A stretch of DNA of 64,000 nucleotides from Nitrospirota bacterium (GCA_963826885.1 CAWGYL010000009.1:172176-236175); one strand, 5' to 3'. Shown: positions 1,676 through 63,671, numbered from the stretch's first letter. The notes: generated by a model from the sequence alone, not told the origin. Made by a program: numbers and translations.

Positions 1676-2182
1676 TAAAAAAAGTGAGGCTCTTTTTTAT
1701 AGTTGGAGAGGGTTGCTGCTATCACCGAATAAAACTCATCTGGTTGCTTTGTAACCTGGACCTTATGTCCCCGCCCTGAAGAACAGGGGTTTTGCGGTAC
1801 GGGAAATTATATAAAAGTTATATAAGCGAATGTGTTGTGAATTAATTTGCATAAATTACATTTAATAAAGTAAAATAAAACGTCATCCTAAGTTCCAGAA
1901 AAGAAGCGAAATGCACAGGTAGTCGATGGGGGACTTATGAAGAAGGGGGAGCCGCAGAAAAGATTTGAACGGAAGTTGCCAGGGAGAGTGGCTCACATAG
2001 CAGCAGCGATTATTCGACAAGGAGACATACTTTTAGAAAAACCCATTTTCCCCTCGCCTTGCTAGCAAAGTCTGTGAAATGCGCGATCGGTAATTCTTCC
2101 TTTTTTCTGCAATCCAGAGATGCAGCCCGGTCAGCCAACTGCAAACAACAAATGGAGAAAACCGGTTTCTGCGGAGAAAACG

Positions 2183-3022
2183 ATGCCTCAAGCTACACAC
2201 ATTAGAATTTTTCTGTATATAGCGATTATGTTGCTTTTTGATCTACGCTCTGGGGCACAGCAAACTGTAGAAAAAAAAGTGCAATGGACAACTATTGCTG
2301 CCGGCGTTGAATACGCACAGTATCCTTTCGGCGAAATGCAGACAGGCCCTGACGTCCTCCACGTGGTTCGGATTAACCCTCGCCGCGCACGGCTCGTGGC
2401 ACTGAGCCGGACCAAGCAGGACCTCCGTAAGAGAACGGCTCAACAATGGTGCGAAGATTTCGGCCTTGTAGCCGTCATCAATGCGGGCATGTATGATGTT
2501 GATCTTGTAACCCACGTGGGATACATGAAAACGTCGGACACGGTGAATAACAAAAGGTGGAACAAAACCTATGAAAGTGTGTTGCTCCTCGACGGGACCG
2601 CTGCGCCACTTCCACCGGCAAAGATAATGGATCGCTCGGATCTCACGGAAAGAGTTCTTAAGTCGTTCGGTACCGTGATTCAGAACCTGCGTCTTATCAA
2701 GAACCCTGGCATCAATGTCTGGGAGCGGCAATCGAGAGCGTGGAGTGAGGCGGCAATCGCGGAAGACCGCAGCGGAAATATTCTCTTTCTCTTTTCAAGA
2801 ACGCCCTATACGATGTTTGAGTTTAACGAAAAACTTTTACAAACCGGCCTCAACGTAGTACGTGCCATGCATGTGGAAGGCGGTCCTGAAGCGAGCCTTT
2901 CTCTCTGTGCGGACACTAAAAAGCTTCACTTGGCGGGCAGGAGTGAAGCCACTTTACACGACCCCGGAGACGAGGACATGGTACAATTGGCCATCCCCAA
3001 TATCGTGGGCGTTAAGCGATAA
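2183..3022 (+). CDS. Exported phosphodiester glycosidase (NAGPA/DUF2233-like) family protein
   Basis: Signal-like N-terminus; INAGMYD, SEAAIAED and AMHVEGGPEAS motifs. GGAG RBS before ATG 2183 (ORF track start 2120). Confidence 0.7.
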   Translation: MPQATHIRIFLYIAIMLLFDLRSGAQQTVEKKVQWTTIAAGVEYAQYPFGEMQTGPDVLHVVRINPRRARLVALSRTKQDLRKRTAQQWCEDFGLVAVINAGMYDVDLVTHVGYMKTSDTVNNKRWNKTYESVLLLDGTAAPLPPAKIMDRSDLTERVLKSFGTVIQNLRLIKNPGINVWERQSRAWSEAAIAEDRSGNILFLFSRTPYTMFEFNEKLLQTGLNVVRAMHVEGGPEASLSLCADTKKLHLAGRSEATLHDPGDEDMVQLAIPNIVGVKR

Positions 3023-3491: not shown

Positions 3492-4520
3492 ATGAGAGAA
3501 TTGTCATTCCATACAGATAATAAATTATGCATAACCTCGTGGGAGCAGGAAATCGCAATATATTCCGGACGGCCGTCTTCACAGGCCATCGGGAATAAAT
3601 ATTACGATATCCTGCCAAGAATCATCGTGGATGATAAAGACGCTGTTGCTGAAGCAGTTAAAAAAAATAAGGCAATATCCTGTAAGGGTTATTCATTCAA
3701 TTGCTTGTTGGGTTGTACTAGAGCTGATATTGAAATTACGCCAGTAAAGCCCCGAGGCCGTAAAAAAGTTGAACTGGTAAAAGTCCTGATTCAGCCCTAC
3801 TCAGCATGCGCGGCGGAAAAAAAACTGCATCAATCGCAAAAGCTGATTGATATCGGCAAGGTAGCCTCCACTCTGGCTCATGGTGTACGAAACCCACTGA
3901 ATGCGATCAAGGGCGCCGTTGTTTACCTGAGAGAGAAATATCATTCCGAGGAGCCGCTTACTGAATTCACCAAGATCATGGAAGATGAGATTACGCGTCT
4001 TGAGAACTTTATCACAAATTTTCTGAGTTCTTCAGTTTCGGAAACAGAGCAGCGCGCAACAGACATCAATGCGTTATTGAAAAAGGTAGAAATATTCACC
4101 TCTCTCCAGATTTATACCCGCAATATTCAATCGCGGTTTGAGTTCGGCGAAATTCCTCCGATCACCATGAATTCCTTTCATATTGAGCAGGCAATTCTTA
4201 ACGTCATGAACAACGCGATCGAAGCAATGCAGGGCGGCGGAAAGCTGAGCATTAAAACCGACACTGCGATGCGCTCCAGCCATCCTTTTGTCGTCATTGC
4301 AATCTCCGATAGTGGCCCCGGGATGGATGCTCAGAATCTCGATGACATTATTCCGAGCAGCAATAGAGGTGGGAGGGGATTCGGGCTCTCCATCACCTAC
4401 GAAATTCTGAAGCATTACGGCGGTCACCTGGAGATTGACAGCAAAAAAAACGAAGGAACGACAATAACGCTATTCATTCCCGCCAGCAAGGCGTCAAAAA
4501 ATCTCAATGATAAACAGTAA
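3492..4520 (+). CDS. NtrB-like sensor histidine kinase (PAS-like + HisKA + HATPase), atypical H-box
   Basis: H-box LAHGVRNPLNAIKG, N-box NVMNNAIEAM, G1 ISDSGPGM, G2 GRGFGLSI. Confidence 0.88.
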   Translation: MRELSFHTDNKLCITSWEQEIAIYSGRPSSQAIGNKYYDILPRIIVDDKDAVAEAVKKNKAISCKGYSFNCLLGCTRADIEITPVKPRGRKKVELVKVLIQPYSACAAEKKLHQSQKLIDIGKVASTLAHGVRNPLNAIKGAVVYLREKYHSEEPLTEFTKIMEDEITRLENFITNFLSSSVSETEQRATDINALLKKVEIFTSLQIYTRNIQSRFEFGEIPPITMNSFHIEQAILNVMNNAIEAMQGGGKLSIKTDTAMRSSHPFVVIAISDSGPGMDAQNLDDIIPSSNRGGRGFGLSITYEILKHYGGHLEIDSKKNEGTTITLFIPASKASKNLNDKQ

Positions 4521-5844
4521 GACAATATTGATCGTAGACGACGAACCCAATGCTGTTAAAGTTCTCTCCGCAATATTACGGGAGGAGGGCTATCATATTC
4601 TCGAGTCGACGGATGTAGACAGCGCCGTTGGCATAGTCCGTAGAGAGAGCGTCGATGCAATCATCACTGACCTGAAGATGCCTGGTAAAGACGGCTTTGA
4701 GCTTTTTCAGCATGTGTCCGATAATAATCCCGACATTCCTGTTGTATTTCTGACAGCCTATGGCACAGTTGATTCCGCGGTAAATGCAATGAGGAGCGGA
4801 GCGTTCTATTATTTCATCAAACCGCCTGATTATGCCAAATTAAAAGATGTCCTGACTCGCGCATTGGAGCAGCGCGACGTAAAAAAAGAATTTGAAAATC
4901 TGAAAAAACGCGCGGTCACCGAAAATAATGTATACCCTCTTATCGGGAAATCCGTTCCGATGGCGGGAGTTCTTAAAACCGTTGCCTCAGCCAAAGATAC
5001 GGATAGCAGTGTTCTTATCCAAGGCGAGACCGGTACCGGCAAGGAAATTGTGGCTTGCAATCTCCACTACGGCGGTAAACGCTATAACAAACCCTTCATT
5101 GCCGTTAACTGCGCGGCCATTCCCAAAGAACTCATGGAATCAGAGCTTTTCGGTTACGAGAAAGGAGCATTTACCGGCGCCGCGTCCACTAAGGCAGGTA
5201 AATTTGAGATGGCGGAGAATGGGACGATATTCCTCGATGAAATCGGCGAAATCGATCTTTCAGTTCAGGCGAAATTGCTACGTGTGTTGCAAGAGCGTGA
5301 AATAGAACGCCTGGGAACAAACAAAAAAATCAAAGTAAACTTCCGACTGCTTTCCTCGACAAACCGAGATCTTAAAAGAGAAGTCGAGTCAGGCCGCTTC
5401 AGAGAGGATCTGTATTACAGGATCAACGTAATACAGATAGATGTGCCACCCCTTCGAGACAGAAAGCAGGATATCCCTGTATTTGCAACGGAGTTTCTGA
5501 ACATTTTTGCGATACGTGAGAATAGGCCATTAATTCTATCCGATGAAGTCATGGAAGCTTTTTTAAAATATGACTGGCCGGGAAATGTTCGGCAGCTAAA
5601 AAATGTTATTGAACGCGCCGTGGTTCTTTCAGAAGGCCAGAAAATCACCCTCAAGGAGCTTCCCCGGGACTTCCCCATCCCGGCTAAGGATATGGTAAAT
5701 GAACAACCGATAAAATCGCTCAAAGATTTGGAGCAAATAGCTATTAATGAAGCATTACAGCGTTGCAATGGAAATAAATCTCAAGCGGCTAAGCAACTCG
5801 GAATTTCGCGGAAGACATTTTATAAGCGACTGAAGGAAATGTAG
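4507..5844 (+). CDS. Sigma-54-dependent response regulator (NtrC/AtoC family)
   Basis: Receiver domain (IVDDE, ITDLKMP); Walker A GETGTGKE; GAFTGA; FLDEIGE; FREDLYYR; WPGNVRQL; C-terminal Fis-type HTH. Confidence 0.95.
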   Translation: MINSKTILIVDDEPNAVKVLSAILREEGYHILESTDVDSAVGIVRRESVDAIITDLKMPGKDGFELFQHVSDNNPDIPVVFLTAYGTVDSAVNAMRSGAFYYFIKPPDYAKLKDVLTRALEQRDVKKEFENLKKRAVTENNVYPLIGKSVPMAGVLKTVASAKDTDSSVLIQGETGTGKEIVACNLHYGGKRYNKPFIAVNCAAIPKELMESELFGYEKGAFTGAASTKAGKFEMAENGTIFLDEIGEIDLSVQAKLLRVLQEREIERLGTNKKIKVNFRLLSSTNRDLKREVESGRFREDLYYRINVIQIDVPPLRDRKQDIPVFATEFLNIFAIRENRPLILSDEVMEAFLKYDWPGNVRQLKNVIERAVVLSEGQKITLKELPRDFPIPAKDMVNEQPIKSLKDLEQIAINEALQRCNGNKSQAAKQLGISRKTFYKRLKEM

Positions 5845-6063
5845 GGATTGACAATTGAGATGGATGATCCTGAGATTGTATAATATGTCACCTTCGCGGT
5901 AAAAGTGCTTAACATTTTTTTAATAGACACTCACTGCAATATGAGAATCACGGCAACCGGCGAACCGGTGAGACAACAGTCAAGGCATCAGCTTGTCTCC
6001 TTTTCCGTGTATTAGTCAGTCCTGAAAGCATGGCGTAGTTAATAAGCGCTGGAGCCATAAGAA

Positions 6064-7896
6064 ATGGATAAAATTGATCTATATAAAAAGAAATTTTTTG
6101 TTCTCCAGGAACTATCCCATGCCATTGTCCTTACTGACAATATAAACACGATCGCGAATACTTTTCTCGACGCAGCAATCAATTACTCTCATGCCGAAAG
6201 AGGCTCTCTAATGTTGTTGACCGATAGCAAGGAGCTCACGATTTTAGCAGCGCGGGGCCTCGATGCTAAGGTCATGGAAGGCTGCAGGGTGAAATTCGGG
6301 GACGAGATCGCCGGCATAATTGCCAAAAAAGGCCAACCAGTGTTGATAGAGGACATCGACCGTGATGGCGGCTTCAAAAGTCATCAACCAGACCGCTACA
6401 AGACGAAATCCTTTATTTCCTGTCCTATTATCAGCAAGAAAAAATTATTCGGGCTGCTCAATATAAACGACAAGAAAGACGGAACGCCCTTTACGATAGA
6501 CGAATTCGAGTTATTGAAAACACTGGCAAACCATTCCGCTATTTTTCTTGATAACGCCTTACTCATGGCAGAGCTGAAAGCAAAGGCGGCGGAGCTGGAA
6601 GACATCAACAAAAAACTGGTGGAAACCGATATCCTAAAAACTGAATTTCTCACCCGGGTTTCACATGAACTGCGTACACCATTGAACTCACTCAAGGGTG
6701 CAATATATTTTTTAGAACAGACGGAAAATATCGGGGAAAAAGATCAAAAGGAATTTCAGGGCATTATTTCATTGGAAATCGACAAGTTGGTTTCCATTGT
6801 AGAGAACCTTCTGGGCTTTCTCAGGCTTGAAGATGAAACGATGCACATCAAAAAAACTGTTTTGAATCTCAGTGATATATTTAGAGAACTTCAAAACTCA
6901 AAGTCGCTCTCAGCCGTCCTGTCGCGCAAAGGGGTCCGCCTGGCGCTTGAATCCGATAACACCCGCTTGGATGTTGTAGGCGATAAAATCAAGGTCGGCC
7001 AACTTTTTGCCAATCTTATCGATGGACTCTGTTATTATCTCGATCGTGGCGACCGCATTGAGATTGTTGCTAGTGAAGCAAACAATGTAAATGTCAGCAT
7101 TGTTCTGGCCAAACCGCTTCCGGATTATGCTCTTTCCATCCTCAATGATGCCCGTTTTGTATTCGAGATGGACCACTCAGAAGACCGGCTAAAGCTTTAC
7201 CTTGCCAAAAATATTGTTGAAACGCATAGATGGAGGCTTTCCGCTGAGAACGTTGACGGCGCTTGCCGGATAACCCTGTCTATTCCGAAAAGCACCAAAC
7301 AGACAATCGATACCTACATCGCGCAGAGTATGGACTCATTTGTCGAGTTCATATCGGAACTGCTCGATTTAGATATCTGTTCCGTCATGCTCGCTGATGA
7401 GCTCTCCAGTGAGCTTACGGTAAAAAGCGCAATTGGCCTGGATGATGACGTTGTCAAGAAAACGCGGATAAAATTAGGAGATAAGATTGCTGGATGGGTG
7501 GCACTCGAAGGAAAACCTTTGTTCATCGAGGACATTGAAAGGGATGAGCGGTTCTCGAAAGTTAGCATATCGCAGTATACGACCAAATCACTGCTTTCGC
7601 TGCCGCTCAAGATCGGGGATCGGGTGGTAGGTGTACTAAACCTGAATAACAAAAAGACGTCTGAGCCTTTTAGCCAGCATGACTACAGCACTGCGACCTT
7701 TTTGAGTGAAATAATTTCGCAGTTTATAAGTACCCTTTATTCAGAAAATTACAGCCAGGAAAAGCTTCGCCGTTTATTCCGTTATTTAAACGAAACGCTT
7801 GCTAACGAACCAGTCAGTCGGGCCAAAACGAACCTCCTGACTGCACTAACGGGCAAGCTCCTCAAAAATTCTCCGTCTTTGAAAAAAGCTAAATAG
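6064..7896 (+). CDS. GAF-HisKA-(degenerate HATPase)-GAF sensor protein
   Basis: Two GAF domains (KSFISCPII...GLLNINDKK; KSLLSLPL...GVLNLNNKK); intact H-box SHELRTPL; N, G1 and G2 boxes not recognisable. Confidence 0.82.
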   Translation: MDKIDLYKKKFFVLQELSHAIVLTDNINTIANTFLDAAINYSHAERGSLMLLTDSKELTILAARGLDAKVMEGCRVKFGDEIAGIIAKKGQPVLIEDIDRDGGFKSHQPDRYKTKSFISCPIISKKKLFGLLNINDKKDGTPFTIDEFELLKTLANHSAIFLDNALLMAELKAKAAELEDINKKLVETDILKTEFLTRVSHELRTPLNSLKGAIYFLEQTENIGEKDQKEFQGIISLEIDKLVSIVENLLGFLRLEDETMHIKKTVLNLSDIFRELQNSKSLSAVLSRKGVRLALESDNTRLDVVGDKIKVGQLFANLIDGLCYYLDRGDRIEIVASEANNVNVSIVLAKPLPDYALSILNDARFVFEMDHSEDRLKLYLAKNIVETHRWRLSAENVDGACRITLSIPKSTKQTIDTYIAQSMDSFVEFISELLDLDICSVMLADELSSELTVKSAIGLDDDVVKKTRIKLGDKIAGWVALEGKPLFIEDIERDERFSKVSISQYTTKSLLSLPLKIGDRVVGVLNLNNKKTSEPFSQHDYSTATFLSEIISQFISTLYSENYSQEKLRRLFRYLNETLANEPVSRAKTNLLTALTGKLLKNSPSLKKAK

Positions 7897-8093: not shown

Positions 8094-8822
8094 TTAAAGC
8101 TGAATCGACTCAAACTCTGGCTTAAGAAGGATGTATTTATTCTTGAGTATCTTTACTTCGCCGCTTTTCTGCCATCTATCTAATATTCTTGTAACTGTTT
8201 CGCGCGAGAGTCCAGTCATAGCAGCGATATTCTGATGAACAAGTTTTAACTTTAAAACCGTACCTTCACTAACCCTTTCCCCATAAGATTCTGAAAGCAT
8301 GAGGAACAACATCTTTATACGTTGAGAAGCATTGTTAAAATTTAATATTTGAATTTTTTTCATGGCGTCACGCAGCCGCGAACAAAGGATCTTAAGAAGT
8401 CTTTCAAGAACTTTATTCTGACTGAGTAACAAGGAAAAAAAATCTTCTTTCGATATTATAGCGGTGACACAATTCCTTGCCGCGTATACTGCGGCAGGTG
8501 CGGTTTTACCATCAATCAAAGAAAGCTCTCCAAAGAAATCACCCGCTTGATGCACCGTCACGATAATTTCTTTGCCTTCGTCCGTTGTTTGTACCACCCT
8601 CACCTCTCCATCAAGAATCATGTACATAAACTGATTTGTTTGTTCTTCACGCAGGATCGTTTGATTTTTGGAGAAACTCTTGATGATAATCTTATCTCGT
8701 ATTTCCTGCAGTTCATTGAGCGTCATGGAAGAAAAAAGATCTATTTTCTTCAATGCGTTTGTCTTGTCATCGACCTTTATAGCACTTCTCGCTATGACTT
8801 TAGATTTTGTCACTTTGCTCAT
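8094..8822 (-). CDS. Crp/Fnr family transcriptional regulator
   Basis: cNMP-binding beta-barrel (FFGELSL); C-terminal HTH LVHQNIAAMTGLSRETVTRIL. Confidence 0.93.
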   Translation of the reverse strand: MSKVTKSKVIARSAIKVDDKTNALKKIDLFSSMTLNELQEIRDKIIIKSFSKNQTILREEQTNQFMYMILDGEVRVVQTTDEGKEIIVTVHQAGDFFGELSLIDGKTAPAAVYAARNCVTAIISKEDFFSLLLSQNKVLERLLKILCSRLRDAMKKIQILNFNNASQRIKMLFLMLSESYGERVSEGTVLKLKLVHQNIAAMTGLSRETVTRILDRWQKSGEVKILKNKYILLKPEFESIQL

Positions 8823-11598: not shown

Positions 11599-11776
11599 TT
11601 TTTTTTGACACTTTTCCCTTATAATTTGTTCAAGCTAGTGAGTGGTCATTGACCAGTACATTGAATTAATGTATCTTTTTGCGCTTCTCTGTTATCATCA
11701 TTATCCGATGTCCGGTAAGTAAGCCGCATAGAATATTTCTTTGGTGGCCTTTTTTATATAGATGGAGGATTATAAA

Positions 11777-12163
11777 ATGTCGTTCAAAAAATCATTCATT
11801 ATATTACTTACATTGTCTTTGTTTATAATTTTAGCGGGATGTGGAGGAGGATCAGGTGGTGCTAGTACTAGTGTCGGTCTAACGACGACAGGGACAGCAT
11901 CATTAACTTGGGATGCGCCTACCACAAGAGCGGATGGAACATCTTTGAACCCGGCGACTGATCTTTCAACATACAGGCTTTATTATGGGACATCATCCGG
12001 CAATTACACACAACATATAGATGTCGCACCGAATCTAACGGCTCCGTATGTAACAACGGATACCGTAACCCTAGCATCGGGGACATATTATTTCGCTGTG
12101 ACGGCGGTAGATACATTAGGGAATGAAAGTGCTTATTCAGCTGACGTTATGAGGACTCTTTAA
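11777..12163 (+). CDS. Lipoprotein with a fibronectin type III-like domain
   Basis: GGAGG RBS; lipobox LAGC; Gly/Ser linker; FN3 signatures LTWDAP, YRLYYG, GTYYFAVTAVD..GNES. Confidence 0.85.
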   Translation: MSFKKSFIILLTLSLFIILAGCGGGSGGASTSVGLTTTGTASLTWDAPTTRADGTSLNPATDLSTYRLYYGTSSGNYTQHIDVAPNLTAPYVTTDTVTLASGTYYFAVTAVDTLGNESAYSADVMRTL

Positions 12164-62972: not shown

Positions 62973-63350
62973 TCACAATAGCAAGCTCTGTTCGGATTTA
63001 TTCATCGTTTCACTCACCAAGGTTCTGAACTTTTGATAATCGAGAGGTTTAAGCAAACAGTGGGAAAGTGACTTATCAAAATGATCAAGTGTCGCCATCA
63101 ATTCCAGGCTCATATGATCTGACAAAATAATCATGGGAATTTTCCATTTTTTCAACTTCTCAAGCATAGCCACACCGTAGGGATAACTGGTAATTACCAG
63201 CCCAATGTCACTAAAATCAACCCATGAGTCAAATTGATGAATATCGGGCATTATATTTGTTCCGAATCCCTCGTTTTCCAGTATTGCGGAACAGATTCTT
63301 GAGAAGCCTGCTTCGTCGATAATAAGTATTTTTTTCTTATATGGCCCCAT
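62973..63350 (-). CDS. Atypical single-domain receiver protein (phospho-acceptor Asp absent)
   Basis: KILIIDE, LVITSYPYG at the Asp position, PMIILS, LLKPLD. Confidence 0.75.
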   Translation of the reverse strand: MGPYKKKILIIDEAGFSRICSAILENEGFGTNIMPDIHQFDSWVDFSDIGLVITSYPYGVAMLEKLKKWKIPMIILSDHMSLELMATLDHFDKSLSHCLLKPLDYQKFRTLVSETMNKSEQSLLL

Positions 63351-63363
63351 AACTATTTAAATA

Positions 63364-63379
63364 TGCAATGATTATGCCT
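63364..63379 (-). promoter_or_regulatory. Candidate sigma-54 (-24/-12) promoter
   Basis: Minus strand AGGCATAATCATTGCA: GG-N10-GC with GGCA and TTGCA; only about 14 bp upstream of ATG 63350. Confidence 0.45.
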
Positions 63380-63671
63380 TTTGTAAATCGTCTTATTTTC
63401 TTGAAAGAACGACTATAAAATAAAAATTAACAAAAGATGTGTTTCTGATGGACACACATATTCAGGGAAACTAAAAATTCATACTGTGTCTATTGGAAAC
63501 AGTATGTCTAACTAATTATAAATATTATGCTTCCTGTCTATTTTGTGTATCTAATAGAATCAACTTATGTAGTAGTTGTCTCTAAGGGTCGGTTGGATTT
63601 TTCTTTAACATGTTGATTTATTTGAAATCCTTCTTTAAAAAGTAAAATATTAGTTAAAGACAGAATGCGGC

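Follow-up and report, generated by a model that had tools for sequence, protein, structure and literature searches.

A histidine kinase, a sigma-54 activator and a GAF-domain pseudokinase, encoded one after another in a genome of the phylum Nitrospirota, constitute, judging from gene order and protein conservation, a conserved regulatory module that adjoins a PEP-CTERM exopolysaccharide (EPS) cluster. The genes lie in a stretch of 64,000 nucleotides (nt) from Nitrospirota bacterium (GCA_963826885.1, CAWGYL010000009.1:172176-236175), which was analysed as a whole and is referred to here as the window. All three are on the plus strand: the kinase, here called kinase 1 (3492-4520, 342 amino acids), the NtrC-type activator (4507-5844) and the GAF protein (6064-7896, 610 amino acids). 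Open reading frame calls and translations confirmed these three genes and their coordinates, as listed in a first-pass annotation of the DNA. That annotation had also described opposite defects in the two kinase-like proteins. Kinase 1 has intact ATP-binding boxes (N, G1 and G2) and Gly directly after the phospho-accepting histidine (position H+1), and the GAF protein has a canonical histidine box (H-box) and lacks the N-box Asn and both G boxes. Both descriptions proved accurate. We see roughly an even chance that the three proteins work as a module of the XrtA/PEP-CTERM EPS system in which kinase 1 and the activator form the core, kinase 1 operates with altered chemistry and the GAF pseudokinase tunes phosphorylation of the activator.

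Kinase 1 consists of a cytoplasmic PAS-like domain (residues 1-105), a HisKA domain (122-181; 35.2 bits against a Pfam cut-off of 26.9) and a HATPase_c domain (229-331; 69.5 bits). The ATP-binding boxes are all present (N-box NVMNNA, G1 DSGPG and G2 GRGFGL). The H-box reads STLAHGVRNPL, with His130 encoded at 3879-3881 and Gly131 at 3882-3884. Residues 110-335 align with ZraS, and alignments were also obtained with KinB and ThkA; in these pairwise alignments, the three known kinases read AHE(I)RNP opposite AHGVRNP. Kinase 1 therefore has the histidine and the N, G1 and G2 boxes of a HisKA kinase but not the acidic residue at H+1.

This substitution is not an accident of one genome. Nitrospirota metagenomes encode hundreds of orthologues of each of the two proteins, kinase 1 and the GAF protein; 121 and 120, respectively, were analysed, and Gly occupies H+1 in all 121 kinase 1 orthologues, at identities down to 57%. 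The wider kinase 1 family was collected by a full-library search (proteins of about 330-345 amino acids) and reduced to representatives by clustering at 50%. Gly is found at H+1 in 55 of the 67 representatives, the remainder having Ser (5), Asn (2), Cys, Leu, Asp or Glu (2). His130 is invariant in the family alignment, Asn at H+4 is present in 58 of the 67, and the ATP-binding boxes are retained in 42-47 of the 51 full-length representatives. Among relatives more distant than this family, 48 of 51 have Glu at H+1. Because Gly is kept in every orthologue and in most representatives, its presence is far from chance, and the alignments indicate that the complementary defects are under purifying selection. 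The same evidence places kinase 1 in a deep family that has exchanged the general-base acid at H+1 for a small residue, mostly Gly, and has retained the His, the Asn at H+4 and the ATP site.

The H-G motif occurs in 3 of the 34 recognisable HisKA kinases of the window's genome, all of them close paralogues. The two others (G000:C2:81178-82392, locus L001; G000:C4:91015-92193, locus L002) are 86-89% identical to kinase 1 and share its H-G box. Both adjoin other receivers and have no GAF partner: the neighbour is a stand-alone receiver in one case and a REC-PAS-GGDEF-EAL protein in the other. The gene for the latter protein has a second, inverted copy nearby and an IS630 transposase gene adjacent to it. 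Within the family, a metagenome representative of 513 amino acids (P0247) has a tandem duplication of the PAS-DHp unit (DHp, dimerization and histidine phosphotransfer), in which the first H-box reads AHGVRNPL and the second, having lost the His, ASGVKNPL.

The activator has Response_reg (acceptor Asp55), Sigma54_activat (236 bits) and HTH_8 domains by Pfam, and its translation contains TDLKMPG in the receiver and GAFTGA in the AAA+ domain, as in NtrC-type regulators. Its gene overlaps that of kinase 1 by 14 nt, and a regulator gene directly follows the H-G kinase in nearly all loci examined. The two genes overlap or adjoin each other in the window, in 14 loci of the phylum and in 13 of 13 metagenome loci that extend far enough to show the next gene, out of 18 metagenome loci of the kinase 1 family. 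Because they are so consistently adjacent, we regard kinase 1 and the regulator as a universal unit and, by this synteny, as the core two-component pair. The regulator is a paralogue of PrsR, a regulator of XrtA/EPS loci, but scores below the equivalog cut-off (392.6 versus 502.6 bits; TIGR02915), and kinase 1 is not PrsK, the corresponding kinase (61 against a cut-off of 300; TIGR02916). Neither PrsK nor PrsR was found above the curated cut-offs in the window's genome, which is 90% complete. A 2.3-Mb genome has a decayed copy of the module (L172; G015:C20:24000-30500): kinase 1 is intact, the regulator is reduced to its last 130 residues and the GAF protein to its first 250.

Whether a kinase with Gly at H+1 is active has to be judged against precedent. 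HisKA autophosphorylation has been said to depend on a strictly conserved acid beside the phospho-accepting histidine. In CrdS of Myxococcus xanthus (H-E-x-x-N), which like kinase 1 is a HisKA kinase of the NtrB type and has a sigma-54 partner (CrdA), the substitutions E372G/A/Q/D abolish autophosphorylation and leave phosphatase activity intact, the phosphatase residue being the H+4 Asn (PMC3510030). Kinase activity is likewise lost and phosphatase activity kept in HK853 E261A and NtrB E140A/Q (PMC3510030), and DrBphP of Deinococcus, which naturally has His at H+1, acts as a phosphatase only (PMC8292422). The engineered Glu-to-Gly change in CrdS is exactly the natural state of kinase 1; however, the Gly of CrdS is that of a laboratory mutant without kinase activity, whereas in kinase 1 Gly is the natural residue, conserved across a whole family with a retained ATP site. 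Escherichia coli PhoQ, an active autokinase, has the H-box THSLKTPL, with Ser at H+1, and for this reason Gly at this position would not by itself prove a dead kinase. PhoQ and DrBphP are, like kinase 1, HisKA proteins with a natural non-acidic residue at H+1; because one is an active kinase and the other only a phosphatase, such precedents do not settle the activity of kinase 1. On sequence, kinase 1 may or may not phosphorylate its partner, as the published precedents cut both ways.

These precedents bear directly on one alternative, in which kinase 1 would lack kinase activity and serve solely as a phosphatase modulated by ATP, the activator would receive its phosphoryl group from another kinase or from acetyl phosphate and the GAF protein would act separately. 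The CrdS (E372G/A/Q), HK853 and NtrB mutants show that loss of the acid can remove one activity and spare the other, DrBphP is a natural case, and the conserved H+4 Asn is what a phosphatase would need. It would nevertheless be unusual if, throughout a deep family, the only partner whose gene overlaps that of a receiver were a phosphatase-only protein. Conservation also extends to the N, G1 and G2 boxes, even though phosphatase activity, too, can be stimulated by nucleotide. In the window, no other kinase is linked to the activator, PrsK was not found in the 90%-complete genome, and PhoQ demonstrates that a non-acidic H+1 residue can support kinase activity. We consider this explanation unlikely, if not strikingly so.

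The GAF protein shows the opposite pattern. Pfam finds GAF and HisKA domains, a region with no HATPase_c match and a second GAF domain, corresponding to GAF1 (residues 26-163), the DHp domain, a region resembling a catalytic and ATP-binding (CA) domain (about 265-410) and GAF2 (421-555). Its H-box, VSHELRTPL, is canonical, with His201 encoded at 6664-6666. In an alignment with HK853, the Mg-binding Asn is deleted (NLIDGLCYY), and the G1 and G2 positions read AKPLP and EDRLKL. SHELRTPL is kept in 120 of 120 orthologues, none of which has a G1 or G2 box and only one of which matches the N-box pattern. The degenerate CA region is itself conserved (QLFxNLIDGL, EDRLKLYLA and THRW). An AlphaFold2 model (mean predicted local distance difference test score, 76.5) contains a DHp hairpin and an alpha/beta CA-like domain, with a low-confidence lid; the nearest structures are HK853 and, as second-best match, the Caulobacter pseudokinase DivL (4Q20), which is also a sequence match. 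The GAF protein thus combines a DHp domain and a CA-like fold with the loss of ATP-binding motifs, the combination that defines a pseudo-histidine kinase.

DHp domains without catalytic domains, as well as ChpT and Spo0B, are known to act on receivers as phosphatase, phosphoryl sink or shuttle. DivL and the histidine phosphotransferases ChpT and Spo0B all resemble the GAF protein in joining a DHp domain to a CA-like fold that does not use ATP, and they act by docking receiver domains. However, DivL has Tyr in place of the His, whereas the GAF protein keeps His-Glu-x-x-Thr and has two flanking GAF domains. Several receivers are encoded near module genes: that of the activator, a pseudo-receiver described below and the stand-alone receiver beside a kinase 1 paralogue. 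The likeness to DivL, in both structure and sequence, raises the prospect that the GAF protein is a non-catalytic scaffold, its DHp domain sensing a receiver (the activator or the 125-amino-acid pseudo-receiver) together with a GAF ligand and thereby controlling kinase 1 or PrsK allosterically. A conserved pseudo-receiver in the same regulon would suit such a role, as would the position of the GAF gene in genome G147, between PrsK/PrsR and the kinase 1-regulator pair. Against this, the His, Glu and Thr of the H-box never vary, even in homologues with as little as 35% identity, whereas the His is missing from DivL. Retention of these residues in a protein without an ATP site points to retained phosphoryl chemistry on a receiver, and we regard a purely scaffolding function as quite unlikely.

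More distant homologues of the GAF protein (35-51% identity) keep SHELRTPLN and have a C-terminal HD-GYP domain. Fused proteins of this kind were found at loci L163-L169 and L171 (genomes G031, G138, G146, G163, G025, G006, G016 and G007), with the HHE..DG.GYP motif intact and the HD motif reading YD in G031, G138 and G007. The CA domain has eroded less in the copies from G006, G016 and G025, which keep the N-box Asn and the G2 box. In the window's protein, the C-terminal tail can be aligned to the beginning of the HD-GYP domain, which has therefore apparently been lost from this protein. The GAF gene is preceded by a gap of 219 nt that is much shorter in some relatives. A possible separate promoter for the gene lies here, at 5855-5884 on the plus strand: TTGAGA-18-TATAAT, which agrees with the consensus at 11 of 12 positions and is the best sigma-70-like match in the region. 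A TTGACA at 5848-5853 was rejected as the -35 box; it is 25 nt from the TATAAT, and the scan favours TTGAGA-18-TATAAT.

To what extent the two proteins belong together was assessed by protein search in an even set of 201 Nitrospirota genomes. The GAF protein is present in 25 genomes and kinase 1 in 23; a DNA search for the motif A-H-G-x-R-N-P-L-N returned the same 23 genomes and its reversed control none. Both proteins occur in 18 genomes, the GAF protein alone in 7 and kinase 1 alone in 5. The gene order kinase 1-regulator-GAF protein on one strand was found at 14 loci, all from the window's own taxonomic family, within which the three genes are syntenic. Three apparent exceptions in the family (G155, G099 and G143) are genes cut by contig ends. 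In genome G197 (100% complete), kinase 1 and the regulator are followed by a Crp-like gene and there is no GAF gene; PrsR and PrsK adjoin. Kinase 1 and the regulator are also present in G193 (100% complete), where a GAF homologue was not found. Several metagenome loci, too, have the pair without a GAF gene, and the GAF gene follows the regulator only in the two closest metagenome loci that reach that far (L084 and L086). Five genomes (G006, G016, G025, G007 and G146) have a GAF homologue and, by both protein and motif search, no H-G kinase. The GAF protein of G031 and G138 is encoded about 40 kb from kinase 1, beside PrsK/PrsR; in G031, the HD-GYP-fused form adjoins an exosortase gene, PrsK and PrsR, and kinase 1, the regulator, the pseudo-receiver and PrsT are found together 40 kb away. 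On this distribution, the GAF protein appears to be a frequent accessory that also serves PrsK/PrsR-type systems. The notion that it excludes PrsK was rejected, as 12 of the 25 GAF-bearing genomes also have PrsK.

The receiver-docking segment of a histidine kinase is the part of DHp helix 1 from H+5 to H+18. Over this segment, among the 34 kinases of the genome and with paralogues set aside, kinase 1 is most similar to the GAF protein and the GAF protein to kinase 1 (NAGAY versus NSGAF), a likeness that faintly suggests a shared receiver. The first-pass annotation had gone further and proposed that the two form a split kinase, acting as a heteromer or in trans. The ATP domain of kinase 1 would phosphorylate His201 of the GAF protein, with Glu202 as the general base, and the GAF protein would relay the phosphoryl group to the activator. 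Were this so, which we think unlikely, a GAF ligand and a PAS signal would have to coincide before the sigma-54 activator was phosphorylated. Part of the proposal stands: the complementary defects are real and conserved, the genes are adjacent in the 14 loci of the family with exceptions only at contig edges, and the docking segments are alike. In addition, the GAF protein, which has no ATP site, invariably has Glu at H+1, although this residue is required only when the phosphoryl group comes from ATP. Precedents exist in the reconstitution of EnvZ from separate domains, in CheA3/CheA4 of Rhodobacter sphaeroides, where phospho-acceptor and ATP-dependent catalysis reside on separate proteins (PMC3591291), and in HisKA-only proteins with HE/DxxN/T that have been proposed as split kinases (PMC3591291).

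The obligate arrangement, by contrast, did not hold up. Across the 201 genomes the two halves do not always occur together, the genomes with kinase 1 and regulator only including the complete G197 and G193, and five genomes have the GAF protein without an H-G kinase. The genes are 40 kb apart in G031 and G138, with the GAF protein next to PrsK/PrsR. Kinase 1 has an invariant His and H+4 Asn of its own, other receivers are the partners of its two paralogues, and its DHp domain is of a different subfamily from that of the GAF protein. The analogy with CheA also has limits, as CheA4 is without any His domain whereas kinase 1 keeps its His, CheA is a different class of kinase, and co-occurrence of kinase 1 and the GAF protein is non-obligate. 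Because each protein occurs without the other, an obligate split kinase is not supported. A facultative one appears compatible with the distribution, in which neither protein depends on the other; taken together, we hold phosphoryl transfer between the two proteins to be improbable.

The neighbourhood of the module indicates what it may control. From 9 to 63 kb, the minus strand of the window is occupied by an XrtA/PEP-CTERM EPS cluster, with members of TIGR03013, TIGR03016, TIGR03007, TIGR03027, TIGR03108 and TIGR03015 and an UpxY-type antiterminator. Because the surrounding genes are PEP-CTERM and EPS genes, we place the module in the control of this system. At the head of the EPS operon is a 125-amino-acid pseudo-receiver (62973-63350, minus strand), in which the acceptor Asp is replaced by Ser (LVITS) and whose next gene encodes the TIGR03015 ATPase. 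Distant loci have the regulator gene, then a 130-amino-acid pseudo-receiver and then PrsT, and the pseudo-receiver of the window is 54-56% identical to these orthologues. The pseudokinase or kinase 1 could use it as a docking partner.

A candidate sigma-54 promoter, AGGCAT-N5-TTGCA, precedes the pseudo-receiver gene at 63364-63379 on the minus strand (GG at 63378-63377 and GC at 63366-63365). It emerged from a weighted scan, as the exact sequence TGGCAC-N5-TTGC is absent from the window. The ATG is only about 14 nt after the GC of the -12 element, from which the mRNA is predicted to be nearly leaderless. The same element precedes the orthologous gene at loci L093, L095, L096, L174 and L175. 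Further upstream, at 63440-63501 (minus strand), are two 17-nt palindromes of the form TGTNTCC-N3-NGANACA (63501-63485 and 63456-63440), the proximal one 62 nt from the -24 element. These are the 2 matches to the motif in the whole window, against 0.145 expected from shuffling, and the motif recurs between the regulator gene and the pseudo-receiver gene at L093, L095, L096 and L174. Given this positioning, the palindromes are probably binding sites of the activator, and the promoter together with the two palindromes (63364-63501) is the likely target of the module. A second copy of the unit is found 14 kb beyond the window (G000:C9:250077-250606; L183 1578-2110) and comprises two 17-nt palindromes, a sigma-54 promoter, a 125-amino-acid pseudo-receiver gene and a NusG/UpxY-like gene.

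The closest described system is PrsK/PrsR/PrsT, which is found, like the module, in XrtA/EPS loci (Haft et al. 2006, PMC1569441; Aquincola floc formation, PMC9850573). PrsT and PrsK/PrsR adjoin the module in relatives of the window's genome. Both systems have a sigma-54 NtrC-type receiver, and the layout in the window, a 17-nt box set about 62 nt upstream of a -24/-12 promoter, mirrors that of the proteobacterial PEP-CTERM box (PMC1569441). The box itself differs, reading TGTTTCC-N3-GGAAACA in the window and ending in TTTACA in Haft et al. 2006. Kinase 1 is a small soluble PAS kinase, whereas PrsK is a membrane GAF kinase, and the regulator differs from PrsR in scoring below its cut-off. The idea that PrsK also lacks the acid at H+1 was rejected, the H-box of PrsK having a normal His-Asp.

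We therefore favour, at the even level of confidence stated above, a three-protein module in which kinase 1 would act directly on the activator, because it has kept its own His, the H+4 Asn and the ATP site and its gene adjoins that of the activator. Its altered chemistry could be that of a slow or otherwise-assisted autokinase, as in PhoQ, or a strong phosphatase bias, as in CrdS E372G. The phosphorylated activator would bind the 17-nt palindromes and open the sigma-54 promoter before the pseudo-receiver gene at the head of the EPS operon. The GAF protein, predicted from its lost boxes to be unable to bind ATP, would be a ligand-controlled pseudokinase that binds to receivers of the PrsR type and, as a phosphatase, phosphoryl sink or shuttle, tunes how far they are phosphorylated. 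The first-pass annotation had offered a phosphatase or pseudokinase acting on the NtrC-type activator as its second option. This is a better fit than the split kinase. What the analysis shows directly is the anatomy, conservation, synteny and cis-elements; from these we infer every enzymatic role, which receiver is used and that the palindromes belong to this activator. The conservation of the promoter and palindromes next to the kinase-regulator pair in distant loci lends further support.

Four points weigh against the favoured module. Kinase 1 may phosphorylate nothing, given that CrdS E372G has no autokinase activity and DrBphP is a phosphatase only, which would leave the activator without an obvious phospho-donor. 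A phosphatase role alone does not account for why the GAF protein keeps Glu at H+1 so strictly, because this residue is dispensable for phosphatase activity in CrdS and HK853. The palindromes are assigned to this activator by synteny only, in a genome with about 25 sigma-54 activators. Finally, close overall kinship of the DHp domains of kinase 1 and the GAF protein was rejected, as a comparison of whole DHp domains does not place them as nearest relatives.

The module is flanked by two other genes. Upstream of kinase 1, and separated from it by 470 nt of non-coding DNA, is a gene for an NAGPA-type phosphodiester glycosidase (2120-3022, plus strand). Directly after the GAF gene, on the minus strand, is a Crp-family gene with a cyclic-nucleotide-binding domain (8094-8822); the Crp-like gene of G197, a genome without a GAF gene, has the same place after the regulator. 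The Crp-family neighbour hints at a cyclic-nucleotide input to the module. An open reading frame at 11762-12163 was considered as a candidate for the conserved small protein and rejected, as it has no similarity.

In the kinase 1 family, an acid described as essential for autophosphorylation has been exchanged, mostly for Gly, throughout a whole natural group of kinases that keep their ATP site, and in one lineage the H-G kinase is tied to a pseudokinase in which both features are reversed. Three cases come into question: catalysis achieved in a new way, a kinase that is by nature only a phosphatase, and a split kinase, the last of which, if true, would be the first shown outside the CheA class. 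For uncultured Nitrospirota, the module would add a second set of regulators, with its own DNA box, to the PEP-CTERM/exosortase control of exopolysaccharide and aggregate formation.

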